This document shows positions 5,748 through 48,966 of a stretch of DNA of 64,000 bases, in pieces. The stretch lies in assembly GCA_964228865.1 (NCBI GenBank), contig CAXRAI010000015.1, positions 17,936 through 81,935 of the forward strand, written 5' to 3'. Each line of letters starts with the position of its first letter. The first letter of the stretch is position 1. The translations under genes were made by a program, and so were the position numbers. The DNA comes from Salinimicrobium sp. Its GTDB lineage: Archaea; Thermoplasmatota; Poseidoniia; Poseidoniales; Poseidoniaceae. Below the pieces are notes generated by a model that did not search any database, had not been told where the DNA came from, and was given only the letters and a program-made list of their open reading frames with translations.

Positions 5748-7865
5748 ATGAAGATGATGGTTCTGAAGTCACGCCGATGCTTTGACGGTGGACGGACGAT
5801 TGGCCGGGACGTGAGCGCGACGGAGGACCCATTCATTTCCCCTGACGTCACCATCCCAGAGCTCACGGTACGGGCCGTCGGGGTTGGTATCGTCCTCGGT
5901 GTGCTGATGACCGCTGCCAACGCATACCTTGGCCTTTATGCGGGCATGACGGTTTCTGCGAGCATACCTGCGGCCGTCATGTCGATGATCATTCTACGGT
6001 TGATGTTCAATGACGTGACGATCCTCGAAAACAACAGCGTCCAAACGATGGCGAGCGCTGGTGAAAGCCTTGCTGCAGGGGTGATTTTTACGGTGCCTGC
6101 CTTCCTTGTGGTCGGGCTGTGGACCGACATCGATTGGGGCATCACGTTGGCCATTGCCCTGCTCGGCGGTTGGCTCGGAACGATGTTTACCATCGCGCTG
6201 CGCAGGTTGTTCATCGTCGAGGAAGCGCTGCCTTACCCTGAAGGCGTCGCGTGCAGGGAAGTCCTTGTCGCGGGAGAAGAGGGAGGGGATGGCATGATTG
6301 CCATCCTTTACGCGCTTGCCATCGGGGCGCTGTACGGTTTTGTGGTCAAAGTCATGGCAGCGGTGCACCACGCCGTGGAAGGCGCCTTTCACTTCCTGGG
6401 TACGCGCCTGTACGCGGGCGCTGACTTGTCGGTGGCTTTGTTCTCGGTCGGTTTCATCGTTGGACTTCGCATCGCTTCGTTCATTTTCCTTGGCGGTGTG
6501 ATCGGATTTGGTATCTTGACGCCCGTTTACGGCTTCATCCATGGATGGCCGGAGGGCGACCTCGCAGCTGGCTTTACGTCGATCTTCTTGACTCAAATCC
6601 GCTACATTGGCGTGGGAGCGATGGTGGTCGGTGGGGTGCACACCCTTTGGACCATGAGGAGAACGATCGTCGAAGGACTCTCGGGGGCGTTCAAAGCCTC
6701 GGACGGGGAAGCCGAACGCTTGCTCAGAACAGAACAAGACATCCCGCTTCGGTACGTGGCCATGGTGGTCGCAGGCCTCGTGGTCCTGACCTTCCTCTTC
6801 TATTGGAGAACCACAGGTTCACTCGTGCTGGCGCTCGCAGGGGCACTGTTCTTGGCCCTCGTGGCCTTTTTCTTCAGTGCCGTGGCCGGCTACATCGCGG
6901 GTGTTGTTGGATCGTCGAATTCACCGGTCTCAGGAATGACGATTGCCACCTTGTTGTTCACCGTCTTGCTGGTGTGGGTCGTCGGTGACCTCATCCTCAA
7001 TTTGGCGACAGAAGAACTCATTCTTGCCACCCTGCTTATTGCAGCGGTGGTCGCATCGTCTAGCGCGATTGCGGGCGACGTGATGCAGGACCTGAAAACC
7101 GGGAACATGGTTGGAGCCACGCCATGGCGTCAACAAACCGCAGAGGTGGTTGGCGTGACTGTGGGTGCGCTTGTTATCGGCCCAGTGTTGAGCCTCCTCC
7201 ACAACGCCTTCCGCATCTCGGCGACGGCGTGCCTCAACGACCCATTGCCCGGCGACCCGACCTGCTCTCGTGCCTTGTTCGCACCCCAAGCAGAACTGAT
7301 TGGAGCCATCGCCCAAGGTGCCTTTGGGGGTTCCATCAACATCCAGATGGTGTTGCTTGGTGTGTTGTTTGCCGTGGCCCTCATTCGCCTGAAAATGCCA
7401 GTGATGTCGGTGGCGATTGGGCTGTACCTTCCGCTCAAACTCTCGGTGCCCATCATGCTTGGTGGATTGATTGCCGCCACCATGGGTGCCGTCATCGTCA
7501 AGCGTATCGACGGCGAGGTGTCCGAAAAGCCCTCCAAGGAAGCCAAAGAAGCGGTGGACACCATGCAAGCGCGTGGCGTCCTCATTGGAGCAGGTTACAT
7601 CGCAGGTGAATCACTGCTCGGGGTCCTGTTGGCAGTGCTGATCGTCTTGGACGTTGATTTGTCCGCCATGCTGGGCATCACAGCCCTCGGTGATGTGGCT
7701 TCACTGCTCTTCTTCCTGTGGTTTGTTGCGGTCTTCATCGCCCTGGTGGCGCAAACCATGCCAAAGGGCATCACGCCGAGTATGGTCGTGGCGGTGGTCA
7801 TCAGTGCCGTCCAGCGTGCCTTCCAGAAGATGATTCCAAGCGCTTTGCAGCGCTCCGATGCCTGA
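5748..7865 (+). CDS. OPT-family oligopeptide/metal-chelate transporter
   Basis: The track ORF is 5673..7865. I moved the start to the internal ATG at 5748 (MKMMVLKS) to remove the overlap with the divergent ATPase start. ELTVRAVGVGIVLGVLMTAANAYLGLYAGMTVSASIPAAVMSM is a typical OPT N-terminus. The protein is polytopic throughout. Confidence 0.8.
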   Translation: MKMMVLKSRRCFDGGRTIGRDVSATEDPFISPDVTIPELTVRAVGVGIVLGVLMTAANAYLGLYAGMTVSASIPAAVMSMIILRLMFNDVTILENNSVQTMASAGESLAAGVIFTVPAFLVVGLWTDIDWGITLAIALLGGWLGTMFTIALRRLFIVEEALPYPEGVACREVLVAGEEGGDGMIAILYALAIGALYGFVVKVMAAVHHAVEGAFHFLGTRLYAGADLSVALFSVGFIVGLRIASFIFLGGVIGFGILTPVYGFIHGWPEGDLAAGFTSIFLTQIRYIGVGAMVVGGVHTLWTMRRTIVEGLSGAFKASDGEAERLLRTEQDIPLRYVAMVVAGLVVLTFLFYWRTTGSLVLALAGALFLALVAFFFSAVAGYIAGVVGSSNSPVSGMTIATLLFTVLLVWVVGDLILNLATEELILATLLIAAVVASSSAIAGDVMQDLKTGNMVGATPWRQQTAEVVGVTVGALVIGPVLSLLHNAFRISATACLNDPLPGDPTCSRALFAPQAELIGAIAQGAFGGSINIQMVLLGVLFAVALIRLKMPVMSVAIGLYLPLKLSVPIMLGGLIAATMGAVIVKRIDGEVSEKPSKEAKEAVDTMQARGVLIGAGYIAGESLLGVLLAVLIVLDVDLSAMLGITALGDVASLLFFLWFVAVFIALVAQTMPKGITPSMVVAVVISAVQRAFQKMIPSALQRSDA

Positions 7866-8739
7866 GGTCCAATGTGAAAGGATGAAAGGCCCACCTCAGA
7901 GCATCGCGGCGATGACCGCCGACATTGACCATCTCGAGGAGCAAGCCCGGCGCTGCCGCGTCGAGATCGTGAAGATGGTCCATCGAGCCCAAGCAGGTCA
8001 CCCCGGTGGGTCCCTCTCAGAAATTGACCTCCTCGTCGCGCTCTACGGAGCCATCCTCAACGTACGCCCCGATGACCCGGATTGGTCGGACCGAGACAGG
8101 TTCATCCTCTCCAAAGGCCATGCATCACCTGGCATGTACGCCGTTCTGGCAGAGCACGGCTTCATCTCACACGCCGACCTCGCTTCCTACCGCGTCAAAG
8201 GCGGCGTGTGCCAAGGCCACGTGGACATGAAGTGGTGCCCTGGTGTTGACTTTTCAGCAGGTTCACTCGGCATGGGACTCTCGTTCGGCCTTGGTTGCGC
8301 ATTGGCCGCTCGCTTGGACGGCTCCAACCGACAAGCATGGGTCATGCTTGGTGACGGTGAAGTCCAGGAAGGCAGCGTCTGGGAGGCGGCGATGGCTGCG
8401 AAGCATCACAACGTGGGCAACCTCAAGGCGATCGTCGATGTCAACCGCATCCAGAACGATGACTTCTGCGTTGAGCAGATGGAAGTGCATGACCTTGAAG
8501 CCATGTGGGCTTCATTCGGCTGGCAAGTGTTCAGCGTCGACGGTCACGACATGAGCGCCGTCGTTGGCGCATTGATGGCCGTGTCCGCGCACGCAGATGG
8601 TCCAGCAGTTCTCTTGGCACAGACCGTCAAGGGCAAGGGCGTCTCCTACATGGAGGACAACCCGTCCTTCCATGGTGCGGCCCCGAACGACGATCAATTT
8701 GCCCAAGCGATGGCGGAGCTCGGGGAGGTGGCCGCATGA
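7858..8739 (+). CDS. transketolase, N-terminal (thiamine-diphosphate-binding) subunit
   Basis: 293-aa ORF. HRAQAGHPGGSLS, SKGHASPGMYA and GDGEVQEGSVWEA are transketolase PP-domain motifs. The split-gene arrangement is typical of archaea. The true start may be the internal ATG at 7882 or 7912 (MTADIDHLEE...). Confidence 0.85.
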   Translation: MPEVQCERMKGPPQSIAAMTADIDHLEEQARRCRVEIVKMVHRAQAGHPGGSLSEIDLLVALYGAILNVRPDDPDWSDRDRFILSKGHASPGMYAVLAEHGFISHADLASYRVKGGVCQGHVDMKWCPGVDFSAGSLGMGLSFGLGCALAARLDGSNRQAWVMLGDGEVQEGSVWEAAMAAKHHNVGNLKAIVDVNRIQNDDFCVEQMEVHDLEAMWASFGWQVFSVDGHDMSAVVGALMAVSAHADGPAVLLAQTVKGKGVSYMEDNPSFHGAAPNDDQFAQAMAELGEVAA

Positions 8740-9671
8740 CGCGAATGGCCGCGACGCGAGACGGTTACGGTGCCGCCTTGATGGAGCTTGCAGGGAACGA
8801 CAAGGTGGTCGTTCTCGAAGCCGACTTGGGCAAGTCCACCAAATCTCAACTCTTCCGCAAGGCCCACCCCGAGCGGACCATCTCGTGCGGGATTGGCGAG
8901 CAGAACATGCTGCTGACCGCAGCCGGCATGGCGTCCTCTGGCTACGTGCCCTTTGCCAGCACCTTCGCCATCTTCACCGAACGTGCCTTTGAGCAGATGC
9001 GAAACGGTGTGGCCCGACCAAACCTTGCGGTCCACCTCTGCGGTTCCCATGGCGGAACGCACACGGGCACAGACGGCTCTTCGGCACAATCCATTGAGGA
9101 CCTGGCCATCTACAGGACCCTGCCAAACGTAACCGTCATCCACCCCGCGGACGACGTGTCGACCAAACTCCTCACGAAGCAACTCGTCGAACACGGTCAA
9201 CCGTCGTACACGCGCACGGCCCGGAACAAGACACCTGTGCTCTACGACGGACGCGAGGACGAGGTCCAGATCGGCCGAGGCATCGTCCACGGGGACGGAA
9301 GCGACGTCACCATCGTGGCCTGCGGCGTGATGGTGTCGCGGTCGCTCGAAGCAGCCGAACTCCTCCGCGCGGACGGGATTGAAGCGACCGTGGTGGACAT
9401 GCACACGCTGAAGCCCCTCGACACCGAACTGCTCGACCGGCTCGCAGCAAGCACCGGATGCATGGTGACCGCAGAGGACCACTCGATCATCGGTGGTTTG
9501 GGCGGAGCCGTGGCCGAGCACCTCATCTCAACGCGACCGGTTCCTTTGGAGCGGGTTGGTGTTCAGGACCGCTTCGGTGAATCGGCGCAAGCCGAGGAAA
9601 TGCTGGAGATGATGGGCCTGACCGCACCTGACGTTGCGGCCGCCGCTCACCGCGCCATCGGCCGAAAGTGA
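8736..9671 (+). CDS. transketolase, C-terminal (pyrimidine-binding) subunit
   Basis: The start ATG at 8736 overlaps the upstream stop (ATGA). MTRMAATRDGYGAALMELAGNDKVVVLEADLGKST...GIGEQNML is a typical TktC. The track ORF 8505.. carries a spurious Arg-rich N-terminal extension. Confidence 0.85.
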   Translation: MTRMAATRDGYGAALMELAGNDKVVVLEADLGKSTKSQLFRKAHPERTISCGIGEQNMLLTAAGMASSGYVPFASTFAIFTERAFEQMRNGVARPNLAVHLCGSHGGTHTGTDGSSAQSIEDLAIYRTLPNVTVIHPADDVSTKLLTKQLVEHGQPSYTRTARNKTPVLYDGREDEVQIGRGIVHGDGSDVTIVACGVMVSRSLEAAELLRADGIEATVVDMHTLKPLDTELLDRLAASTGCMVTAEDHSIIGGLGGAVAEHLISTRPVPLERVGVQDRFGESAQAEEMLEMMGLTAPDVAAAAHRAIGRK

Positions 9672-9713
9672 GACCCCCCAAGATTCAAGGAACGTCCTCA
9701 GCGCCTTCACCGC

Positions 9714-10373
9714 ATGGAGTTCTTCCTGGACACGGCCGACGTTGACGAGATTCGAGAGATTGCCGCGTGGGGCATCCTTGACGGTGTGACCACCAACCCT
9801 TCGCTCATCAAAAAGAGCGGTCGGGACTTTCGAGAAGTCGTCCGCGAAATCGCGGGCATTTGCTCTGGACCGATTTCAGCGGAAGTCACCGCAATGGACA
9901 CCGCCGGAATGGTCGAGCAGGGCCGGGCGCTGAAGGCGGAGCTTCCAGAAAACGTCATCATCAAGATTCCATGCACGCCGGAAGGGCTTGCCGCGACAAA
10001 AATCCTCACCGAAGACGGGATCAAGACGAACGTAACCCTGATCTTCTCAGCATCCCAAGCGCTGATGGCCGCCAAAGCGGGCGCAACCTACGTCTCGCCC
10101 TTCATCGGCAGGATCGACGACACGGGTCACGACGGGATGGAACTCATCGCTGAGATCATGAACACGTGGGCAAACTACGACCTGGACACCAAGGTCCTCG
10201 CAGCCTCTGTGCGCCACCCGACCCACGTGCTCCAATGCATCCAACTTGGAGCCCATACGGCCACCATGCCTGCCAAGACCTTCCGCCAACTGATGAGTCA
10301 CCCCCTGACCGACCGAGGTTTGGAAGGCTTCATGCGCGACTGGGCTGAAGTTGAAGCCAAAGGCAACGCGTGA
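9714..10373 (+). CDS. tal: transaldolase (short Fsa/TalC-type)
   Basis: 219 aa. [32 protein letters not shown] and [10 protein letters not shown] (Schiff-base Lys region) are seen. It follows the transketolase genes. Confidence 0.9.
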
Positions 10374-10999
10374 TGAAGCGTGGGAGCCTTCATCAAGGAG
10401 GCATCCGACGCGAGGCCGGTGACCGCATGAGCCTGCCGGACGACCAACTCCGCCGTCTGCTCGACGGGGAGATCGACGCCGGTGAGTTGGCCGGAGACCG
10501 GGTCATGGCCAGCATCGCCGACCGGGTGTTCGGCGTCAAGGTCGACCCTGCCGTCCGTCCCGTCAAGCCTCGCGACGCGGCCGCCATGGGACAAGAACCC
10601 GGGGCGCCAGCGCCCGCCCAGCCTCAGATGTTGGTGGAAATCATTCCCGGTGGTGGAGCTCCGCTTCCAACCATGGAGGCACCACCAATTGGGGGCGCCC
10701 TTCCTGCTCTGGAGAAGCCGGCGGCCATCAAGCGCCGACGAAAAGGTCTGGTCTTCGTTGGGCTGCTTGGCCTTGCTGCCGCCCTGGTGAACGTTTTCGT
10801 CGGGATGGGCGAATTTATTCCAACCTGCGACCCGAGTGTTCACGTCACCTGTGGTCAATCGCTGAAGCTGAACTGGCTTGATGCGTACAAGACCGCAGAA
10901 CACATCGCTTGGGGCCCCACCGGGGTGTGGGGCATTCCGGACATGGTCGCCACTGGCGCGAGTGCGCTGCTCATGCTCTTCGGTCTCAAGAAGCGCTGA
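10370..10999 (+). CDS. hypothetical membrane protein (Pro/Ala-rich linker, two C-terminal TM segments)
   Basis: The start (GTG 10370 / ATG 10373) overlaps the tal stop. Hydrophobic stretches [20 protein letters not shown] and [15 protein letters not shown] are present. I recognise no family. The competing antisense ORF 10298..11245 is Arg/Gly-rich and looks spurious. Confidence 0.45.
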
Positions 11000-11038
11000 A
11001 GCCGTCATCTTGATGGCTCCAAGCGCAGGCCACACATC

Positions 11039-12556
11039 ATGGGCAAGAAGGTCGCCAAGGCCAACCGAGGGATTCCATCCAAGGCTGAGGCCTTTACGGA
11101 ATGGTACCCCTTCATCGTTGAAGCGGCTGAGTTGGTCGACAAGCGCTACCCAATCAAGGGCATGGACGTCTGGCGCCCGTACGGCTGGAAGACCATGCGG
11201 CTCATCGACAATTTGACCCATGCGGAAATGGAGCGAACGGACCACGACGAGGTCAACTTCCCGCTCCTGATTCCAGAAGTGCTCCTCGAGAAAGAAAACG
11301 CCCTTGTGGCACGACTAAAGCGCGCTCGAGAAGAAGGCGTTGATCCCGACGAATTGCGCGATGAGGAAGAAGAAGCCGGTTTCAAGAAGGAAGTCTACTG
11401 GGTCAAGCACGCTGGAGAAAACGAGCTTGACGTCCCCATGTTCCTGCGCCCAACCTCTGAAACGGCCATGTACACCATGTTCCCCTTGTGGATTCGATCC
11501 CACGCGGACTTGCCGTTGAAGGTCTACCAGATGGTCAACACCTTCCGTTACGAGACCAAGCAAACGCGTTCCTTCATCCGTGTGCGTGAAATCCACTTCT
11601 TCGAAGCGCACACGGCCCACATTGACGAGGACGACGCCTCGCGACAAATCGAACAAGATTTGGAAATCGTCGATCGACTCATGCACCACCTTTGCCTTCC
11701 GGTGTTGAAGGCCAAGCGACCGGTGTGGGACACCTTCCCTGGCGCGTGGTACACCATCGGCATCGATGCCATCATGCCGAACGGTCGCACGCTGCAGGTG
11801 GCCTCCTGCCACCACTACCGTGACCAATGGGCGAAGGCCTTCGACATCACCTACGAAACCAAAGACGCCGCACAAGCCCACGTGCATCAGACCACCTACG
11901 GGATGTCCGAGCGGCTTCTGGGCGCCGTGGTCGGCATGCATGGCGACGATTCAGGATTGATCATGCCCCCCGCCATTGCACCGCTCCAGGTGGTCATCTG
12001 TCCCTTGGTGCGCAAGAACGCCACCGTGGACACGGTGGCGGTGGCTCACGATGTGGCCGACCGCCTGCGAAACGCGGGCTTCCGTGTCAAGGTCGACGAC
12101 CGTGACCTCCACCCCGGTCAGAAGTACTACGATTGGGAGATCAAGGGCGTCCCGCTCCGGCTCGAAGTTGGGCCACGCGACGTGGAACAGGGCAGCGTCT
12201 TCGCTGCACGCCGCACGGGCGGCAAGGCGCCGATTCCAATGGACGAACTCGAAAGCGGTGTTCGTTCGACCCTTGACGACATCGCAGAAGAGTTGCGCAC
12301 CCGCGCCCACGCCCACGTGGACGACGTCGTGAAACCGCTCCCCGCGTGGGGCGAGAACGGACTTGAATCGCCTGTTGAGGAAGGCCGCATCTATGAGTTG
12401 GCCTTCAACGGCAGCGATGCCGATGCAGAGCGCCTTGAGCGAGCCACGGGTATGGGCTTCCTCGGCGACGCCACGGAGCCCTATGCCGACCCACGTCCAT
12501 GCCATGCCACGGGTGAGCCCACCACGCGCCGGGTCCTGATGTCACGGTCCTACTGA
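11039..12556 (+). CDS. proS: prolyl-tRNA synthetase (archaeal/eukaryal type)
   Basis: 505 aa. FTEWYPFIVEAAELVDKRYPIKGMDVWRPYGW, FLRPTSETAMY, and NTFRYETKQTRSFIRVREIHFFEAHT (class II motif 2 region) are seen. Confidence 0.9.
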   Translation: MGKKVAKANRGIPSKAEAFTEWYPFIVEAAELVDKRYPIKGMDVWRPYGWKTMRLIDNLTHAEMERTDHDEVNFPLLIPEVLLEKENALVARLKRAREEGVDPDELRDEEEEAGFKKEVYWVKHAGENELDVPMFLRPTSETAMYTMFPLWIRSHADLPLKVYQMVNTFRYETKQTRSFIRVREIHFFEAHTAHIDEDDASRQIEQDLEIVDRLMHHLCLPVLKAKRPVWDTFPGAWYTIGIDAIMPNGRTLQVASCHHYRDQWAKAFDITYETKDAAQAHVHQTTYGMSERLLGAVVGMHGDDSGLIMPPAIAPLQVVICPLVRKNATVDTVAVAHDVADRLRNAGFRVKVDDRDLHPGQKYYDWEIKGVPLRLEVGPRDVEQGSVFAARRTGGKAPIPMDELESGVRSTLDDIAEELRTRAHAHVDDVVKPLPAWGENGLESPVEEGRIYELAFNGSDADAERLERATGMGFLGDATEPYADPRPCHATGEPTTRRVLMSRSY

Positions 12557-12672
12557 GCAACACCCCACAAGATCTGGATGTCCGTTAACATCCTTTGAAG
12601 CCGGTCCAGTGGATTGTGTGGCAATGACGTTGTAGGCTTTGATGAACACCACAGGCCAAAGGATATACGCGG

Positions 12673-14799
12673 ATGTTGAACGTTGGAAGACCGATGACAA
12701 CAACCGCTCGACCACAAATCGCAGCCATTGTTCTCATTGGGCTGCTCGTCGGAAGCCTTGGCATCATCACCCTCAACACGGATGAAAAAGAGGTGGATGA
12801 ACCGGTTGACGACGTGAACGATGAGGTCCATGACCACAGCAGCCATGACCATGGTGCACCCATTGTGGTCGCCTTGTTGCAGGAAAACGATGACGGAAAT
12901 TGGAGCATCCTTGGTGGCGTGGCCCACGCCTACCCAGACTTGGTACGGGTCACCGTGACCGCCACAACAACCACTGGCACGGAGACCGTGGCCGTGCTCG
13001 AATCCGCGGACATCGACGAAGGGGGCGCATGGAGCGTCGAACTGTCGTCGAACCTGTCGGACGGCAACGCTTGGGACAGTCTGCACATCATCGCAACGGA
13101 CGTCGGGGCCAACACCACCTCTGAGCCGCTCGTTCTGACGCGAACAACGAGCGACAACAACGAGGAAGAAACCCCAGGATCAACACCTCGTTCAGAACAA
13201 TGTTTGGACAGCCATGCCAACCTCGCCATGCACACCCACCCGTTCATGGAACTGGTCGTCAACGGCACAGCAATCTCCATTCCATCCAACCTCGGCATCG
13301 ACACCTCGGCATGTCCGAACGCCATGCACCTCTTGCACACGCACGACACAAGCGGAAAGTTGCACGTCGAGGGATATGACGCCTTCACGCCAACGGCTGA
13401 GCTCTTCTTTGCGGTCTGGAACCTGTCGTATCCTGACTCCACAACGCTTGACCCGCTGTTCCTCGACGCACAAAACGTCAGCATCACCGTCGACGGAGCC
13501 ACCTACACAGGTCCGTGGTCAGCGCTGGACCTGTTGGACGGTGAAACCACCAGGATCGTCCATGACGCGACCCGCCCAGACACCGACGGAGACGGCGTCC
13601 CCGATGATCTCGACGCGTGTGAAGGTCATGACGACAACATCGATGAAGACGAAGACGGAACCGCAGACGGTTGCGACGATGAAATTCGAAGGCAATACGA
13701 CGCAAGCGACCTCGCTGAATTTTGGATGGACGTCTTCCTCTGCCAGCACGGTTCTGGTACGGGCATCGACGACCTGAACACGACAGAAAACGATGGCCAC
13801 ATCTGTGAAGTGACCGTCACCGTGGTCGGCGACAACGTGAGTTTGTCGATGAACGGACTGCCCAACCATGACCTCGAATCAGGACCTGGTTGTTGTGCCG
13901 CTGCTCAAGACTACACCATCCTTGTTCCACGATCACCTGTGAACGACACGATGGGCGGCCACGATGCCACGAACTGTCCAGAAGCCAACGGTGCATTCGC
14001 TTGTGCCCCAGACCGTGGAGAAATCGCCTTCGCTCTGAACGGCGTTCCCATCTACGGTCCTGAGGACGGCCCCGGCGGAGACGCTGTGGCCTCTCACCAT
14101 GGCGTTTACGAAGAAGACCGGCAAGAAATCTGGTTGGGACTTTGCCACGCCCACAGCGGCCCAGGTGGGACCTACCATTACCATGCAGACGGAAATTGCA
14201 TGCATTGGCACCCAGATGAAGGTGAAACGTGGTTGGATTACGAATGGCCCGGGAACACCTCGACGAACACCTCATCGGGAGTGATCGGCATAGCGTTCGA
14301 CGGTTACCCGATTTACGGCGCATACGGCGACGCTGGAAACGGCACGATTGAGGAGATGATGTCCTCCTATCGCCTCAAAGCCGGCGAGACAGGGTACAAC
14401 GGTATTGACGACTACGAGTACGTCGAAGGTTTGGGTCACTTGGACGTATGCAACGGTCATTTTGGACCAACACCAGACTTCCCAAACGGCATCTACCACT
14501 ACCACTCCACCATGGTCAACGGTGAGGGTGACATGGGGTTCCCATACTTCCTCATCTGCTACCGCGGCGTGGTTGACGAGGCCCTGCTTGGTGGGGGTGG
14601 AAACGGTGATGACGCGTGCGCTGGTCACGGCGAGACTTGGGGGCCAGGCATTGGTCCACCACCAGAAGGATGTGACCAAGGGCCACCGCCAGGTGGTCAA
14701 TCCACGGACCCCGTGTTGGTGCCCACCCTGCGCTTCGACGTGAGCATCCTGCTGATCATCGCTGTGTTGGCCGGAGCAGCATGGCGGTTGCGCCGCTGA
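12673..14799 (+). CDS. secreted/anchored YHYH-domain protein with TSP3-like Ca-binding repeat and C-terminal TM anchor
   Basis: 708 aa. There is an N-terminal TM/signal anchor (IAAIVLIGLLVGSLGII). A His-rich block reads HTHPFMELVVNG...HLLHTHDTSGKLHVEG, followed by DTDGDGVPDDLDACEGHDDNIDEDEDGTADGCDD. Two YHYH motifs are present (GGTYHYHADGNC, NGIYHYHSTM). The extreme C-terminus is a Pro/Gly linker + VSILLIIAVLAGAAW + RLRR. Confidence 0.75.
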   Translation: MLNVGRPMTTTARPQIAAIVLIGLLVGSLGIITLNTDEKEVDEPVDDVNDEVHDHSSHDHGAPIVVALLQENDDGNWSILGGVAHAYPDLVRVTVTATTTTGTETVAVLESADIDEGGAWSVELSSNLSDGNAWDSLHIIATDVGANTTSEPLVLTRTTSDNNEEETPGSTPRSEQCLDSHANLAMHTHPFMELVVNGTAISIPSNLGIDTSACPNAMHLLHTHDTSGKLHVEGYDAFTPTAELFFAVWNLSYPDSTTLDPLFLDAQNVSITVDGATYTGPWSALDLLDGETTRIVHDATRPDTDGDGVPDDLDACEGHDDNIDEDEDGTADGCDDEIRRQYDASDLAEFWMDVFLCQHGSGTGIDDLNTTENDGHICEVTVTVVGDNVSLSMNGLPNHDLESGPGCCAAAQDYTILVPRSPVNDTMGGHDATNCPEANGAFACAPDRGEIAFALNGVPIYGPEDGPGGDAVASHHGVYEEDRQEIWLGLCHAHSGPGGTYHYHADGNCMHWHPDEGETWLDYEWPGNTSTNTSSGVIGIAFDGYPIYGAYGDAGNGTIEEMMSSYRLKAGETGYNGIDDYEYVEGLGHLDVCNGHFGPTPDFPNGIYHYHSTMVNGEGDMGFPYFLICYRGVVDEALLGGGGNGDDACAGHGETWGPGIGPPPEGCDQGPPPGGQSTDPVLVPTLRFDVSILLIIAVLAGAAWRLRR

Positions 14800-42984: not shown

Positions 42985-43677
42985 ATGGTCTCCCTTGACG
43001 ACGCGGTTGTGGCGCGTTGGGAGCACGGCGGAAAGCGCTACGAAGTTCTTCTCGACCCTGACTTGGTCGAGTCTTTTCGTGAAGACCCTGATGCCGTGAA
43101 TCTTGACGACTTGATGGCCGTCGAAGACGTGTTTCACGACGCCCGCCAAGGCGAGCGCCCTGCAGTGGACGACCTCATCGCGACCTTTGGTTCGGAAGAC
43201 GTCGGTGCGGCAACGCGAACCATCCTCGAACGCGGCAGCATCCAGTTGACCACCGCGCAACGAAAGGCACGCGTCGATGCCATGCGCCAACGCATCCTCC
43301 ACCAAATCCACAGCCAGGCGGTGGACCCTCGGACCAAGTCACCACATCCGCGGGCGCGTTTGGAACTCGCGCTTGAAGAAAGCCGATTCTCTGTGGATCC
43401 TTTCAAGCGGCTTGAAGCCCAAGTCAAGGACGCCATCAACGTCCTCAAACCATTGATTCCACTCTCGTTTGAACGCATCAAGTTGGCCTTCAAGGTCAGC
43501 GGTTCGGCCTACGGTCGTGCTCACCAAGTCCTTCGCCCAGACCTGAAGCGAGAAGAATGGTTGGCCAACGGCGCATGGGTCGGCATCGTGGAGGTCCCGG
43601 CCGCGCGCAAAGCGGACCTCATTGAAGACATCATGCGCTTGGACAAAGACGCAGAAGTCAGGGAACTGCCCTCGTGA
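42985..43677 (+). CDS. SBDS/Sdo1-family ribosome maturation protein
   Basis: 230 aa. VSLDDAVVARWEHGGKRYEVLLDPDLV...VFHDARQGERP...GSIQLTTAQRK are seen. The conserved archaeal neighbourhood next to psmA supports the call. Confidence 0.88.
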   Translation: MVSLDDAVVARWEHGGKRYEVLLDPDLVESFREDPDAVNLDDLMAVEDVFHDARQGERPAVDDLIATFGSEDVGAATRTILERGSIQLTTAQRKARVDAMRQRILHQIHSQAVDPRTKSPHPRARLELALEESRFSVDPFKRLEAQVKDAINVLKPLIPLSFERIKLAFKVSGSAYGRAHQVLRPDLKREEWLANGAWVGIVEVPAARKADLIEDIMRLDKDAEVRELPS

Positions 43678-43725
43678 TTGGGGGCTCATCCATCGACCAA
43701 AGGTCGATGCTCACGTTCAGTGGAC

Positions 43726-44793
43726 TCAGCGGGTCGCGAGGGTGAGGTTCTTCCACATGTCCTCGGGGACTTCCATGGACAAGCGCAGGCCACCCATGGC
43801 GCCCAAGCGAACAGGGTCATCGACCACGTGGACGTTGACGTCACCCATGTCGGACAGGCGGCGCTCAATCATCGCACCAAGACCGCGAATACCAGAGCCG
43901 CCACCGGCGAGCACCATGTTGCGACGGAATTCATCATGGAATTCGGGGTTGGAACCGGCGATGAGTTTCTTGACGTTTTCAACGATGGGATCAACGATGG
44001 ACTCGCAAGCGCGCTGCACACAATCGGTGATGTCGAGGGTCATGGCCTTGCCTTCGATGGAGAAATCCACCATGATGGGATCTTCGGGCGGTGAGGTGGA
44101 CACGAAGGAGTGCTGCTCCTTCCAACGGCGGGCCATGTCCTTGGTGACTTGGGCCCCGTTGTACTTTCCTTGAACTTCCTTGATGATCTGGCCGTCGACA
44201 TAATCGCCGGCGTAGCCGGTGTGCATCTGGTCTCCGGGGCCAGGGATGGTTCCGTAAACGCGGCACAGGTCGGTCGTTCCTGCACCAATGTCGATGACCA
44301 GGGTGTGCTCGAGCATGTCGAGCGCGTAGGCCACAGCGAAGGGTTCGGAGATGATCATGGCGGCGTTCACGGAGCCTGCAGCTGCGTCGAAGATGGCCGT
44401 CTTGTCGACGTGGCTTGCTTCGGCCGGGGCACCGATCACGGCGACCACGCGGTCGTAATCTTCAGGGTCGGACAAGCCGATGAGGTGGGTGATGAAATGG
44501 GCGATGTATTGCCGGTCTTCGGGGGTGTCCTTGATCACACCGAGTTCCAAAGGTCGGTAGAGGTTCAATGCGAGGCGGTTCTTGAGGGCCTCCTCACCGA
44601 ACAGCACGTCACGCTTCAGGAAGTTGCGAGCGACCGGATCCTTGGGGGTCCCGATGACGGTCAACTCTTCCACTTCGTGGGATGCAGAGGACACCATCAC
44701 GGAACGGAAGGTTCCGAGGTCGATTCCAATGTAAAGCGTCTCTTTGGCCATGGGCCCACGAGCGTGGTTTCGCTTATGAACCATCCCTTGCAT
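43726..44793 (-). CDS. actin-fold filament protein, MamK-like subfamily
   Basis: 355 aa (341 aa if it starts at the ATG at 44751). LYIGIDLGTFRS (phosphate 1), AVIGAPAEAS, MIISEPFAVAYAL, LVIDIGAGTTDLCRVYGTIPGPGDQ (phosphate 2) and MVLAGGGSGIRGLG (adenosine) are seen. The strings resemble MamK as I remember it (SEPFMVGYGL, IVDIGAGTTDICALKGTVPGPEDQ) more than MreB. Confidence 0.8.
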   Translation of the reverse strand: MQGMVHKRNHARGPMAKETLYIGIDLGTFRSVMVSSASHEVEELTVIGTPKDPVARNFLKRDVLFGEEALKNRLALNLYRPLELGVIKDTPEDRQYIAHFITHLIGLSDPEDYDRVVAVIGAPAEASHVDKTAIFDAAAGSVNAAMIISEPFAVAYALDMLEHTLVIDIGAGTTDLCRVYGTIPGPGDQMHTGYAGDYVDGQIIKEVQGKYNGAQVTKDMARRWKEQHSFVSTSPPEDPIMVDFSIEGKAMTLDITDCVQRACESIVDPIVENVKKLIAGSNPEFHDEFRRNMVLAGGGSGIRGLGAMIERRLSDMGDVNVHVVDDPVRLGAMGGLRLSMEVPEDMWKNLTLATR

Positions 44794-44802
44794 GATTTGG
44801 TG

Positions 44803-45855
44803 TCAGCACCACGCCTCGCAGGTGTGACAATACCAAGCCGCGTGCTCTGGGTAGAGTTCGGCCATCCCCGAACAGCCCGTGCATTCTTTCTGCGCTTGGT
44901 CGCCAAACATTTGCATGACGATGGAGACGTGATGATGGTCGTCAATTCCGAGTTGTTGACGCATGGCCCAGAGCAGTTGATCCTCGGATGGAGAAATGAT
45001 GCCGTCTTCAAGCACCAGTTCGACCACGCTCTTGTAGTCGTCAATCACCTGAATCTCGCGGTGGTCGAGGCGGATGCCGCCCTTCTCGGCGACGATGTCC
45101 TGGCCACCCGGGTCGTCGGCATAGACCACCAAAGCGCTTGCTTGGAGGCTTTCCTCCCTCAATTCGAGATGAATGCTGCTGCCCTCGAGGTTCGCGTACA
45201 CCAACCGCGAATGGCGGTTGATGGTGTTCGTGATGGACCGTGCCGTGTCCTCCTTGGTGCGACCGCGCTTCCAGCCCGTTGGACTGGATTCGTTGTAGGC
45301 GTAGAACTCGGTGCCGTACCCGGGATATTCCAAGCGGAGTTCTTCACCTCCATCGAAATCGTTGGTGAGGATGTGGAAGGCTGCGACATGGGTGGACACA
45401 AGGTTGTCGTCATCGTCGAAACTGATCATCAGTGGCTTTCGCTCCTCAGCCGCCGCATTGAAGTGACCCTGCATGCCACTCATCCACTTGTCCTCGAGGC
45501 GCTTCAGACTGGCTTCCTGTTCACCTGAAAGTCCCTTGTCGATCCCCAACATGTCACGAAGTTCACCGGATTGGACCTCTTGCTTGAATTGCTCAACCAA
45601 GCCAGCGTTGTAGTGGTGGTCGTCACGGGTAGGACCAGCCTGCTGAACGACATGGTTCGGGTCGGCCCATTCGTAGTTGCACTTTGAACACGAAAGGTAT
45701 CCGGTCATGGTCGAAGGCTGCGCGTCTCCACCGCAACGTGGGCAATCGCCCTCTTCGTTCACGGCCAGGTTGTCTGCTGCTTCACGGCGCCCGCGGCGGG
45801 GATTGAATCCAGCCATGGCCTGAGAGGAGCCGAGACCGGACTTCAAGGTGTTCAT
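44803..45855 (-). CDS. hypothetical protein with CxxC-x14-CxxC zinc ribbons at both termini
   Basis: 350 aa. CPRCGGDAQPSTMTGYLSCSKC lies near the N-terminus and CTGCSGMAELYPEHAAWYCHTC at the C-terminus. The ~250-aa acidic middle region is unrecognised. Its ATG overlaps the upstream stop (ATGA at 45852-45855), and the ORF ends 9 nt before the actin-like ORF. Confidence 0.65.
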   Translation of the reverse strand: MNTLKSGLGSSQAMAGFNPRRGRREAADNLAVNEEGDCPRCGGDAQPSTMTGYLSCSKCNYEWADPNHVVQQAGPTRDDHHYNAGLVEQFKQEVQSGELRDMLGIDKGLSGEQEASLKRLEDKWMSGMQGHFNAAAEERKPLMISFDDDDNLVSTHVAAFHILTNDFDGGEELRLEYPGYGTEFYAYNESSPTGWKRGRTKEDTARSITNTINRHSRLVYANLEGSSIHLELREESLQASALVVYADDPGGQDIVAEKGGIRLDHREIQVIDDYKSVVELVLEDGIISPSEDQLLWAMRQQLGIDDHHHVSIVMQMFGDQAQKECTGCSGMAELYPEHAAWYCHTCEAWC

Positions 45856-46676
45856 GCTCTCGCAACGATGGCTTTGCGCCCATAGCGAAGCGTCCCGTCC
45901 TGTGCGTAGACCCGGCGGACAACGAGTCGAACCTCATCGCCGATGTCCACGGCACTTGGGTGTCCATCAGCATGAAGAAAAACGCCACACGGCCCCTCAT
46001 CGAAGGCGAGGATCATCGAGGTGAGACCTCCGAGGACCGGAGCCCTGATGGCAAACTCCGAAGGGCAACCCGCGGCGATGAGCCGGGTCCACGACACCAC
46101 GTGGGCCGTCAAGGGCAAGAAACCACCGTCCTGAGGCAGCCCGCCATCCTCGAGGGATCCGCGAGGTGGCCAGACATGCCCCGCCTGGGCCTTCATCCCT
46201 AGGCGGGCTTCCATGCCGAGCGCATGCACTTGACCCGAAACATAGGCCCCCTGGGAGACGTTTTCATCGGTCATCTCCATGGCCCACGCTTGTTCCATGG
46301 CGACGTGAACATCAGGCTCCACAGCAAGGCGAAGCTCAGCCGCAACTTCGACCGCATCGAGGTTGAGGGGGATGTCGCGAGGCGCCACGGCCGCTCCACA
46401 CTGGAAACGGTGAACAACGTACGGACCTCCTTCCTGGACGCTGAGCCAAGGGAGACTTGCAGAAACAACCCTCGCTTCATCTTCAGTCATGGAGAGGTGA
46501 ACCGATGCGTGGTGACCACGCCGATTCCACGCCTCGAGGGCATCGATGACCGTGGTGAGGTCATCCGCGTCCGGGGCGTGAACGCGCTCGCCGTTGACGT
46601 GGAATCGGGAAGCGACCACCACCGTCTTGTCGCTGCGGTTCAGAGCGATGCCCGCCTCAGCCGTGTCGAGCATCAT
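45852..46676 (-). CDS. DUF35-like OB-fold protein (thiolase/HMG-CoA-synthase scaffold family) with extra N-terminal domain
   Basis: The start ATG at 46676 overlaps the thiolase stop (ATGA). The C-terminal ~90 aa (LTAHVVSWTRLIAAG...GLTSMILAFDEGPCGVFLHADG...IGDEVRLVVRRVYAQDGTLRYGRKA) look like the acyl-CoA-associated OB fold. The usual CxxC...CxxC rubredoxin-like ribbon is absent. The ~170-aa N-terminal region is unrecognised. Confidence 0.55.
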   Translation of the reverse strand: MMLDTAEAGIALNRSDKTVVVASRFHVNGERVHAPDADDLTTVIDALEAWNRRGHHASVHLSMTEDEARVVSASLPWLSVQEGGPYVVHRFQCGAAVAPRDIPLNLDAVEVAAELRLAVEPDVHVAMEQAWAMEMTDENVSQGAYVSGQVHALGMEARLGMKAQAGHVWPPRGSLEDGGLPQDGGFLPLTAHVVSWTRLIAAGCPSEFAIRAPVLGGLTSMILAFDEGPCGVFLHADGHPSAVDIGDEVRLVVRRVYAQDGTLRYGRKAIVARA

Positions 46677-47842
46677 TCCAGGGACCTCCCAAACACGTGC
46701 ACGGCACACGTCGCACCCGAACCCCCAACGTTGTGCGTCAGGCCAAGTTCAGCGTCTCGAACTTGGCGAGGTCCTGCTTCACCTCGCAGCTGCTTGAACA
46801 CCTCAACCGCTTGTCCGGCCCCGGTCGCCCCCAATGGGTGACCCTTGGCTTTGAGTCCGCCGGACCCGTTGACCGTGGTACGGCCTTCGTTCCGCCGTCC
46901 TTCCCCATTGCGTGCGAACACGCCACCTTGACCTGTCTCGGCCAATCCAAGGTCTTCCGTGGCCAGCAACTCCGCCACTGTGAAGCAATCATGCACCTCG
47001 GCCACGTCGAGGTCGGTGGCTGAACATCCCGACTGCGCATAGGCCTGAGACGCTGCTGAACGTGTGGCTGCAAGGGTGGTCAGGCTTGGCCGGTCGTGCA
47101 GCGCGAGATGGTCAGAGGCTGCCCCGCTGCCTCGCATCCACACCGGTGCATCGGTGATTTTTCGTGCGATGTCCCCTGAGGCCAACACGACGCAAGCGGC
47201 CCCATCGGAGGTCGGACAGCAATCGTAGAGGGTCAGAGGATCTGCGATGACCATGCCGCTTGCAGCCTTTTCGAAGGAGACGTCCTTGCGCAGATGAGCA
47301 TCGGGATTTTCGAGCGCGTGGGCGTGGTTCTTGACGCTGATGTGAACGAGGTCGTCATGCGTTGAACCAAATTCGTGCATGTGCCGTCGAGCCATCAAAG
47401 CGTACGTGCCAGGGAAGGTCAAACCCGCCAAGCGTTCCCATTCGGTGTCTCCAGAAACGCCGAGCCAGAAGCGTTTGCGCTCAGGCGTGAGATCGTTCAT
47501 CTTCTCAACACCACCAACCACGACCACGTCCGCGCGTCCGCTGGCGATCGCCGCCCAGCCGTCGCGCAACGCGAAACCAGAGGACGCACATGCGTTCTCG
47601 ATGCGACGGGCGGGAACCCTTGCCATGCCTGCGTGCTCAGCGAGGTAAGCCGCCGTGTTCCCGAGTTGGCCTCCTCCAAAGGCGGTGGAACCGATGAAGA
47701 CCTCATCCACCGAAGAGGGCGCGAGGTCGCCATCGATTGAGGCAAAACACGAACGCACCGCGTCGGCCCACATGTCCTTCATCGCGGCAGGATGGGTGCC
47801 GTAGGGCGTTTGCCCCGCGCCGACCATGGCGACGTCGACCAT
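46673..47842 (-). CDS. acetyl-CoA acetyltransferase (archaeal thiolase)
   Basis: 389 aa. VAMVGAGQTPYG, RIENACASSGFAL (nucleophilic Cys), GGLKAKGHPLGATG and THNVGGSG are seen. Confidence 0.88.
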   Translation of the reverse strand: MVDVAMVGAGQTPYGTHPAAMKDMWADAVRSCFASIDGDLAPSSVDEVFIGSTAFGGGQLGNTAAYLAEHAGMARVPARRIENACASSGFALRDGWAAIASGRADVVVVGGVEKMNDLTPERKRFWLGVSGDTEWERLAGLTFPGTYALMARRHMHEFGSTHDDLVHISVKNHAHALENPDAHLRKDVSFEKAASGMVIADPLTLYDCCPTSDGAACVVLASGDIARKITDAPVWMRGSGAASDHLALHDRPSLTTLAATRSAASQAYAQSGCSATDLDVAEVHDCFTVAELLATEDLGLAETGQGGVFARNGEGRRNEGRTTVNGSGGLKAKGHPLGATGAGQAVEVFKQLRGEAGPRQVRDAELGLTHNVGGSGATCAVHVFGRSLE

Positions 47843-48609: not shown

Positions 48610-48966
48610 TCATCGCGCGCCGCAGGCTGGGCAGAAGTCCAGCTCCGGATCGAGCATGGCGCCACAGTTCTCGCAGATCCCAGCAGCCAAGGTCGACATG
48701 GTCTCTCGGACCTCAGATTCAACGGTACGTTGCTGGGGGCGCACGACCGCGGTCGGGTCCAAGCCCAAACGAACGCGCTCGCCGTGGGCAGCAACGAAGC
48801 GCATGGCTTCTTGCAAGGCCGCCTGAAGCTGCCGGCGGCGTTGTTCACGCTCAACGGCATCCACAATCGTCTCCGTGGACTCCAGTTCTGCCTGTAGGTG
48901 ACGCATGAACACGTCAACGGTTGCCTCGTCGCCCATGGGTGGACTGTGGGTGCGGCCCGTCTTCAA
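48610..48966 (-). CDS. small hypothetical coiled-coil protein with C-terminal zinc ribbon
   Basis: 118 aa. A helical, Glu/Arg/Gln-rich N-terminus is followed by CENCGAMLDPELDFCPACG. Its 3-prime end abuts the kptA stop. An alternative start lies at 48936. Confidence 0.45.
   Translation of the reverse strand: MKTGRTHSPPMGDEATVDVFMRHLQAELESTETIVDAVEREQRRRQLQAALQEAMRFVAAHGERVRLGLDPTAVVRPQQRTVESEVRETMSTLAAGICENCGAMLDPELDFCPACGAR

Follow-up and report, generated by a model that had tools for sequence, protein, structure and literature searches.

MamK, the magnetosome actin of Magnetospirillum magneticum AMB-1 (PDB 5LJV, 5LJW and 5JYG), assembles into two-stranded, parallel, non-staggered helical filaments in an ATP-dependent manner (PMC5597319). 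BeeR, an actin of Verrucomicrobiota that also polymerizes with ATP, is three-stranded and tubular (PDB 8R2N) and has as its hallmark a disordered N-terminal extension of 30–50 residues (PMC11929497). Among archaeal actins, salactin, from haloarchaea and Methanotecta (Pfam PF25229), has MamK as its closest actin subfamily and is not a shape determinant of the MreB type (PMC10746226). Several actins have dedicated accessory factors, including MamJ, McaA/B, ParR, AlfB and the arcadins (PMC13170167). Here we describe a MamK-like actin-fold ATPase gene, paralogue A (positions 43726..44751, minus strand; 341 codons and a stop), studied together with its flanking chromosomal context in a 64-kb window, that is, the whole stretch of archaeal contig CAXRAI010000015.1 under analysis, and the neighbouring gene for a protein named here ZnR350. 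Its host belongs to Marine Group II (MGII), globally abundant planktonic archaea that have never been cultured and whose cell biology is nearly blank.

MamK is the best match of the window actin in the PDB, among NCBIfam models and in Foldseek. A phmmer search of PDB sequences ranks MamK first (E = 4e-74), ahead of BeeR (5.5e-44), T. maritima MreB (3e-14) and eukaryotic actins (~1e-3), and pairwise identity amounts to 38% over 336 residues for MamK, 30% for BeeR and 29% for MreB. The MamK model of NCBIfam (NF040964) leads all others by about 150 bits, with a score of 357 bits that falls short of its cutoff of 400. The scores against the models for BeeR (NF053558, 206.7 bits against 530), MreB (PRK13927, 90.4 against 293; TIGR00904, 80.6 against 365.75) and salactin (NF053533, 60 against 400) are likewise below their cutoffs. 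Calibration of the MamK model gives 472–508 bits for representatives of MamK proper, 425 for a cluster with a Nitrospira-labelled member, 410 for a fusion protein (P0254), 357–384 for MGII paralogue A (P0117 having 384), 371 for an ANME-2 representative and 330 for a second MGII paralogue, paralogue B (P0249). The top Pfam match is the generic MreB_Mbl (90.7 bits, cutoff 27), and it is because Pfam offers only this generic family that NCBI and JGI entries bear the name ‘rod shape-determining protein MreB'. An AlphaFold2 model computed from 38 MGII actin sequences (alignment A2; predicted local distance difference test, pLDDT, 76; predicted template modelling score, pTM, 0.77) is matched by Foldseek with probability 1.00 to MamK, BeeR, MreB and actin structures, with MamK best (template modelling (TM) score 0.74–0.80), followed by BeeR (0.72) and the MreBs (~0.63–0.75).

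The position of the protein relative to these families is refined by a bootstrapped neighbour-joining tree of 89 actin domains, which is not a maximum-likelihood tree. In this tree the MGII actins form a clade of their own (100% bootstrap), outside the MamK-proper clade that unites AMB-1 MamK with P0278 and P0313, and BeeR and its relatives form another. Paralogue B (P0249) is sister to the MGII clade (87%), and the next branch consists of long bacterial fusion proteins (62%). Judged by these comparisons, the window actin falls in the MamK/BeeR-like branch of prokaryotic actins and not in MreB; it is a marginal, MamK-like member of the family rather than a MamK of magnetosomes. A preliminary description of the locus, made from its letters alone, had called the protein MamK-type. 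This stands in so far as MamK is a much nearer relative of the protein than MreB, Hsp70, salactin or crenactin-type actins are, and falls where MamK proper is meant, given the score of 357 against 400 bits and the place in the tree.

Detailed comparison with MamK shows an end-to-end alignment with two small gaps, similar lengths (341 and 347 residues), shared nucleotide motifs and equivalents of MamK E143 and D161. Neither an N-terminal extension nor a membrane-binding segment is found in the window actin, and its gene adjoins that of an acidic accessory protein, as in MamK. However, the MGII protein differs from MamK in its archaeal host, its separate clade, its location outside any magnetosome cluster (it does not lie in a mamAB-type cluster of a magnetotactic organism), its score below the NF040964 cutoff, an Asp at the filament-contact position of MamK A278, and a partner, ZnR350, that is unrelated to MamJ, LimJ, MamY and McaA/B as far as sequence searches reach. 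BeeR, the second-best PDB and Foldseek match, offers a parallel as a MamK-like actin of a non-magnetotactic organism whose role in the cell is unassigned (PMC11929497). Unlike BeeR, the window actin has its first β-strand at residue 5, lacks the N-terminal extension and lies in a separate clade. The resemblance to MreB consists in the actin fold and the generic MreB_Mbl match, whereas the elongasome gene context of MreB is absent. Salactin is also archaeal, yet distant (Pfam E = 9e-14); it has a long charged N-terminal tail that the window actin does not possess, and its hosts are Methanotecta rather than MGII, which belongs to the Thermoplasmatota lineage.

The open reading frame (ORF) of the actin covers 355 codons (43726-44793, minus strand), the full length of which had been taken as the product. 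The ORF is indeed there, but the product is shorter. In most of the 80 loci compared, in-frame stops interrupt the 14 codons that precede ‘MAKE/MAED', and 341 residues is the length of most database homologues; the real start is therefore assigned to Met15 (window position 44751), which gives a product of 341 residues beginning MAKETLY. The motifs quoted in the preliminary description (GIDLGT, SEPFAVAYAL, VIDIGAGTTDLCRVYGTIPGPGDQ and LAGGGSGIRGL) are all present in the ORF, and the strings that it gave for MamK are correct, since PDB MamK chains read SEPFMVGYGL and iVDIGAGTTDICALKGTVPGPEDQ. The phosphate-1 motif GIDLGT (residues 9–14; 44710..44727, minus strand) has G9, D11, L12, G13 and T14 invariant in the MGII alignment. 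It is followed by the SEPF motif (44338..44349), in which E136 aligns to MamK E143 in a column that is Glu in 71 of 89 family members; by the phosphate-2 motif DIGAGTTD (residues 154–161; 44269..44292), in which D154 aligns to MamK D161 in a column that is Asp in 89 of 89; and by the adenosine-binding motif LAGGGSGIRGL (residues 281–291; 43879..43911), all on the same strand. We take MamK E143 to be the catalytic glutamate, and E143 and D161 to be catalytic/dynamics residues of MamK. Polymerizing ATPases of the actin superfamily are characterized by five nucleotide-binding motifs (phosphate 1, connect 1, phosphate 2, adenosine and connect 2). The four strings GIDLGT, SEPF, DIGAGTTD and LAGGGSGIRGL are nearly invariant across the 38 MGII sequences; the actin-type nucleotide site is intact, and the protein is an actin/ASKHA-fold ATPase. 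The short element PEFHD (43933..43947, minus strand) contains D273, which aligns to MamK A278 and is Asp in 105 of 120 MGII paralogue-A proteins. Mean column identity in the MGII alignment is 76%, and the ~160 invariant columns are spread over the full length, a pattern indicative of strong purifying selection along the whole protein. Hydropathy (maximum 19-residue Kyte–Doolittle mean of 1.27) indicates no membrane segment, and no membrane-targeting or hydrophobic segment is seen by this measure, in which an amphipathic helix is not specifically modelled. A 472-residue ORF on the plus strand (44110-45528) lies antisense to both actin and ZnR350 and would be preferred over them by a length-based gene caller; it is almost certainly spurious, as is often the case in DNA of ~60% guanine plus cytosine (GC).

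Scanning GTDB with a single genome for each species retrieved 174 stretches that encode a relative of the actin, and locus comparisons were made over the best 80 of them, whose actins are 87–99% identical to that of the window. The protein is present in both Poseidoniales families, with 76–99% identity. Record titles in 79 of the 80 loci refer to Candidatus Poseidoniales, Poseidoniaceae, Poseidonia, Thalassarchaeaceae, Thermoplasmatota or generic ‘Methanobacteriota/Euryarchaeota archaeon' metagenome-assembled genomes (MAGs). Five independent Poseidoniaceae MAGs carry a locus 99% identical to that of the window with the same flanking genes, and the pair of actin and ZnR350 also occurs in a record titled with an isolate name of single-cell style (AH-287-P07). 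Dozens of Poseidoniales MAGs from independent assemblies show the arrangement again, on contigs that reach 1.5 Mb. Pfam confirms the neighbours noticed earlier (proteasome alpha, SBDS, Tpt1/KptA and the amino-acid-kinase-fold IPK), and the window also encodes diphthamide synthase, TiaS, SRP54 and an Lhr helicase. GC content is uniform over the window (0.56–0.64) and that of the actin region equals the rest, which argues against a recent insertion. The window thus derives from an MGII (MGIIa) archaeon of Candidatus Poseidoniaceae; a bacterial mis-bin is excluded, in agreement with the initial judgement that the contig is not obviously bacterial. Conversely, one of the loci (L054; contig CALDQY010000264.1, 2,277 bp) holds an MGII actin of 91% identity and is filed under an ‘uncultured Rhodobiaceae bacterium' MAG; this is probably an archaeal contig that was binned by mistake into a public bacterial genome.

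ZnR350 is encoded immediately upstream of the actin on the same strand (44803..45816; 337 codons and a stop; its ORF extends to 45855, and homologues begin MAGF...). This order is found in 79 of the 80 loci, the exception being a contig that starts only with the actin gene, and the gap between the two genes is 51–158 nucleotides in all loci but one. The outer flanks, by contrast, vary: the downstream flank is common to only 8 close relatives, and a thiolase gene with ORF285 stands upstream in only ~55 of the 80 loci, so that ZnR350 is the only conserved neighbour across the 80 loci. ORF285 (45852-46709, minus strand; 285 residues) matches nothing in Pfam or NCBIfam; it runs into the end of the thiolase gene (46673-47842) and borders directly on ZnR350. 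Its conservation is weak (~31–66% identity), and it is absent together with the thiolase from ~25 of the 80 loci, so that it seems tied to the thiolase rather than to the actin module. The search for ZnR350 itself yielded 282 homologues; the 120 matches listed are 60–82% identical, and all named ones among them are Poseidoniales or ‘Euryarchaeota archaeon' MAGs. On this distribution ZnR350 is specific to Poseidoniales.

The predicted architecture of ZnR350, two zinc ribbons and a central core domain, appears to be new. An N-terminal C4 ribbon (C25, C28, C43 and C46; 45679..45744, minus strand), with cysteines invariant or nearly so, and a C-terminal C4 ribbon (C312, C315, C330 and C333; 44818..44883), with invariant cysteines, enclose a conserved globular core at about residues 126–311 (44884..45441), which in the AlphaFold2 model consists of a β-rich domain followed by three helices, including EDGIISPSEDQLLWAMRQQLGI. 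The model has pLDDT values of ~87–94 from residue 141 onward. The protein is acidic (isoelectric point 4.8, net charge −27, with −2.4 in the N-terminal ribbon region), contains no hydrophobic segment and is predicted to be cytoplasmic. It matches no Pfam family; a Foldseek search of the PDB with its fold gives a best TM score of ~0.2 and no convincing match (those to flagellin and phage tail have root-mean-square deviations of 7–23 Å), and a profile search of PDB sequences finds the eL43 ribbon as sole match. This match is weak (E = 1.6e-4 by phmmer to H. marismortui L37Ae; 4.5e-3 with the A1 profile) and confined to about residues 9–58 of 337. Identity with ribosomal protein eL43/L37ae, which has about 90 residues and consists of the zinc ribbon, was considered and rejected on scores of 17.4 bits against 87 in NCBIfam and 11.5 against 21.9 in Pfam. 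The eL43-like N-terminal ribbon nevertheless explains the JGI label ‘ribosomal protein L37AE/L43A' on several ZnR350 orthologues, and may point to an origin of ZnR350 by duplication of the eL43 zinc ribbon.

A further conserved element lies 22–29 nucleotides upstream of the actin ATG, at 44773..44780 on the minus strand. The motif TTCATAAG, or its variants TTCATAAA or TTGATAAG, occurs in nearly all 79 distinct actin-upstream sequences, even where the flanks diverge, and TTCATAAG is present once in the 64-kb window, before the actin. A TATA-like promoter or regulatory site specific to this gene is the probable reading, and would allow the actin to be transcribed independently of ZnR350.

Poseidoniales also encode a second MamK-like actin, paralogue B (P0249; 334–336 residues), which is 45% identical to paralogue A and is widespread, with 83–100% identity among its matches; its neighbours are labelled Thalassarchaeaceae, Poseidoniaceae or Poseidoniales. 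Paralogue B is found neither in the window nor in the 80 paralogue-A loci. Its own neighbourhood (loci L082-L084, L088-L091 and L093-L102) is fixed and comprises an S8 peptidase, actin B, a coiled-coil protein and then PcrB, an ABC transporter and a rhodopsin; in L082 the actin B gene occupies 8001-9008 and the coiled-coil gene 9101-10381. The coiled-coil partner has ~425 residues and an acidic tail, and some JGI entries name it ‘chromosome segregation ATPase'.

Beyond Poseidoniales, a search of 1.84 billion cluster representatives (clusters at 50% identity) finds 1,191 relatives of the actin at E ≤ 1e-3 and 147 at E ≤ 1e-30, and some of the latter clusters have members that carry the labels Nitrospira, Verrucomicrobiota and ANME-2/Methanosarcinales. 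By sequence, MamK-like actins are therefore common outside magnetotactic bacteria, and in view of so wide a radiation, which includes the published BeeR, an archaeal copy without mam genes is less surprising. The 147 clusters, the ANME-2 member and BeeR make the gene less of an exception than had initially been supposed. The preliminary description had also overlooked the features that tell most, namely the ZnR350 gene, paralogue B and the later start codon. The archaeal family, by contrast, still appears to be unnamed: in the literature that was searched, no paper makes a relevant connection between Poseidoniales or Marine Group II and MamK, MreB or actin, a passing mention being still possible. 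The findings that the preliminary description had named as fatal to it, namely a place among ordinary MreB or Hsp70-like proteins, a bacterial contig or a family already named in archaea, were not made.

The closest relatives outside MGII (P0244-P0260; L085/L086, with the gene at 10001-12364 in L085, and L081 4864-8562) are bacterial proteins of 523–1,232 residues. They begin with a conserved coiled coil, which a long low-complexity linker joins to a MamK-like domain at the C terminus, and their contigs also encode UvrC, D-Ala-D-Ala ligase, peptidase M23 and a Por secretion tail. In L081, downstream of the fusion gene come another actin-like gene, three Roadblock/LC7 genes (PatA_N being present in one) and an Arf/Ras-type small GTPase. 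Another relative, P0251 (L092 1890-2936; 46% identical to the window actin), sits within a chemotaxis operon, where CheA/CheW, CheC and CheD precede it and a CheC/CheX gene follows. MamK-like genes occur in a second lineage of archaea, ANME-2/Methanosarcinales (P0261, L087 6001-7077; 43% identical), where a 1,940-residue ORF without a Pfam match (7103-12925) comes directly after the actin. No homology was detected between the ANME-2, che-operon or fusion-associated neighbours and ZnR350, or among these neighbours; a ZnR350 hidden Markov model finds no match beside the out-group actins, and the coiled-coil partner of paralogue B has no similarity to the N-terminal coiled coils of the bacterial fusion proteins. 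The recurring pattern, as far as sequences tell, is that of a MamK-like actin with a lineage-specific accessory protein, often coiled-coil or acidic.

Taking these results together, we consider it fairly probable that the module encodes a lineage-wide ATP-dependent filament of the MamK/BeeR branch with ZnR350 as its adaptor or regulator, of bacterial origin and later duplicated. The MGII actin would bind and hydrolyse ATP and form cytoplasmic filaments, as MamK and BeeR do. ZnR350 would be either an adaptor that couples the filaments to a cargo or structure, or a regulator of filament dynamics, in the manner of MamJ, McaA/B, ParR, AlfB and the arcadins. A single acquisition from bacteria would have preceded the diversification of Poseidoniales, with a subsequent duplication giving rise to paralogue B and its coiled-coil partner. 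The filaments may, for instance, position or segregate some component of the cell, or give the cell its shape. The module resembles ParM/ParR, AlfA/AlfB, crenactin/arcadins and MamK/MamJ in that an actin gene adjoins a small lineage-specific accessory gene (PMC13170167). It differs from them in the eL43-like ribbon, new β/α core and second ribbon of ZnR350, as well as in the acidity of this protein, the lack of centromere repeats, the chromosomal location and the universal presence in Poseidoniales. Archaea, to our knowledge, lack FtsA. For this reason an ‘FtsA' from MGII/III euryarchaeota, listed in a deep-sea metaproteome study (10.1101/310524), may be one of these MamK-like actins and is at most a hint of expression.

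Several observations weigh against this proposal. Asp is the native residue at the position equivalent to MamK A278, and A278D is the change carried by the ‘non-polymerising' MamK of PDB 5LJW. The AlphaFold2 model is weak in subdomain IB (residues 33–74, pLDDT <50). The backbone of the neighbour-joining tree has no bootstrap support, so that the tree speaks to the exclusion of the MGII clade from MamK proper and not to its sister group. Finally, the link between actin and ZnR350 is one of gene adjacency alone, and the upstream element of the actin means that strict co-transcription of the two genes is not implied. As for the Asp, it suggests that filament contacts differ from those of MamK; Asp or Glu occupies the site in 33 of 89 family members, including P0254 and P0259, which pass the MamK model, and with acidic residues so widespread there the native Asp is no argument against polymerization as such, although it is kept as a caveat. 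A more ambitious form of the proposal, in which Poseidoniales would have a two-filament cytoskeleton of bacterial MamK-like origin, with paralogue A paired with ZnR350 and paralogue B with the coiled-coil protein, together positioning or segregating an unseen structure or cargo, is tentative and rather unlikely to be right in full.

The main rival to the adaptor-linked filament is a DNA segregation system akin to the usually plasmid-borne ParMRC with its adjacent centromere repeats, in which the actin would move a chromosome or plasmid and ZnR350 would be a DNA-binding analogue of ParR. The two-gene layout of an actin and a small partner suits it, as does the fact that zinc ribbons often bind nucleic acids, the N-terminal ribbon of ZnR350 resembling that of the rRNA-binding eL43. 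The actin has a weak match to a PHROG ‘partition protein' (E = 1.8e-6), and salactin has been studied with regard to DNA segregation and shape (PMC10746226). However, ZnR350 is acidic throughout, its N-terminal ribbon included; no centromere-like iterons or inverted repeats are found at 43400-46900, where repeats are at chance level; all readable flanks consist of chromosomal housekeeping genes, with no plasmid or viral copies; and the actin is far nearer to MamK than to any ParM/Alp family. We therefore regard this mechanism as decidedly unlikely. An origin in a defence system or phage was also considered and rejected: PADLOC gives no defence-system matches beyond noise, PHROGs only the weak generic actin/partition matches, and no viral contig encodes a relative of the actin.

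Alternatively, the protein could be a non-polymerizing actin-fold ATPase, chaperone-like or regulatory, that has kept a MamK-like sequence and lost the ability to form filaments. The native Asp at the site where A278D abolishes MamK polymerization and the poor model of subdomain IB would agree with such a loss, whereas the wide occurrence of acidic residues at this site, in P0254 and P0259 among others, and conservation over the full length, as expected for selected surfaces, argue for retained assembly; both relatives of solved structure are polymers. This alternative has a slim chance of being correct.

The name under which the actin is filed in databases implies an ordinary MreB, whose membrane-bound antiparallel filaments would guide envelope synthesis and cell shape. 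MreB_Mbl as top Pfam match, the source annotations and the similarity of the MreB fold in Foldseek (~0.7) are in its favour. Yet curated MreB models stay far below their cutoffs where MamK reaches 357 bits, the PDB E-values favour MamK, no membrane-binding segment is seen, and no MreC, MreD, RodA or PBP-type genes are detected by a Pfam scan of the ~45 predicted proteins of the window. We know of no archaea with a peptidoglycan elongasome. An MreB in this sense is very improbable, and a role in shape or as a scaffold may instead be exerted by a non-MreB mechanism.

Even less probable, to the point of being remote, is a cryptic magnetosome-like or mineral- or vesicle-containing organelle that the window protein, as a true functional MamK, would align. 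MamK is the best-scoring characterized family, and the acidic ZnR350 loosely recalls the acidic MamJ (for the role of which see PMC13170167). On the other side, the Pfam scan of the window shows no CDF (MamB/M), LemA (MamQ), trypsin/PDZ (MamE/O) or TPR (MamA) proteins, which bears out the earlier observation that magnetosome genes are missing from it, and no Mam-type gene is conserved near the actin across the 80 loci. The actin is below the MamK cutoff and outside the MamK-proper clade, ZnR350 has no similarity to known families, and MamK-like genes are carried by many non-magnetotactic lineages; the module is unconnected with magnetosomes. An artefact, in the form of a bacterial contig wrongly binned with archaea or of a horizontal insertion of very recent date, could invoke the related 2.3-kb contig in a Rhodobiaceae MAG and the bacterial nature of the closest clade outside MGII, but is effectively refuted by the 64 kb of archaeal genes of uniform GC around the actin and by the repetition of the arrangement in independent Poseidoniales MAGs, in the AH-287-P07 record and on contigs of up to 1.5 Mb.

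Elsewhere in the window, between the KptA and IPK genes, an ORF of 118 residues (48610-48966, minus strand) ends in a DUF7575/zinc-ribbon domain (E = 8e-7); its position is kept in 64 of the 80 loci, with identity of only ~40%.

The distinct MGII actin clade, its partner ZnR350, the two-paralogue arrangement and the conserved TTCATAAG element are new, and nothing in the MGII actin module is mechanistically unprecedented. For sequence databases the analysis corrects a mis-annotation that affects thousands of entries, named ‘MreB' for the actin and in some cases ‘ribosomal protein L37AE' for ZnR350. For the family, it suggests that MamK-like actins are a broad radiation rather than a magnetosome speciality, one that reached archaea at least twice, in MGII and in ANME-2, with different lineage-specific neighbours in each. 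For MGII itself, two small, soluble proteins open to expression, the actin and ZnR350, and a second actin with a coiled-coil protein provide a testable handle on cell biology, and the two-filament cytoskeleton, if true, would represent an archaeal counterpart of organelle-positioning actins together with a new actin–adaptor pair.

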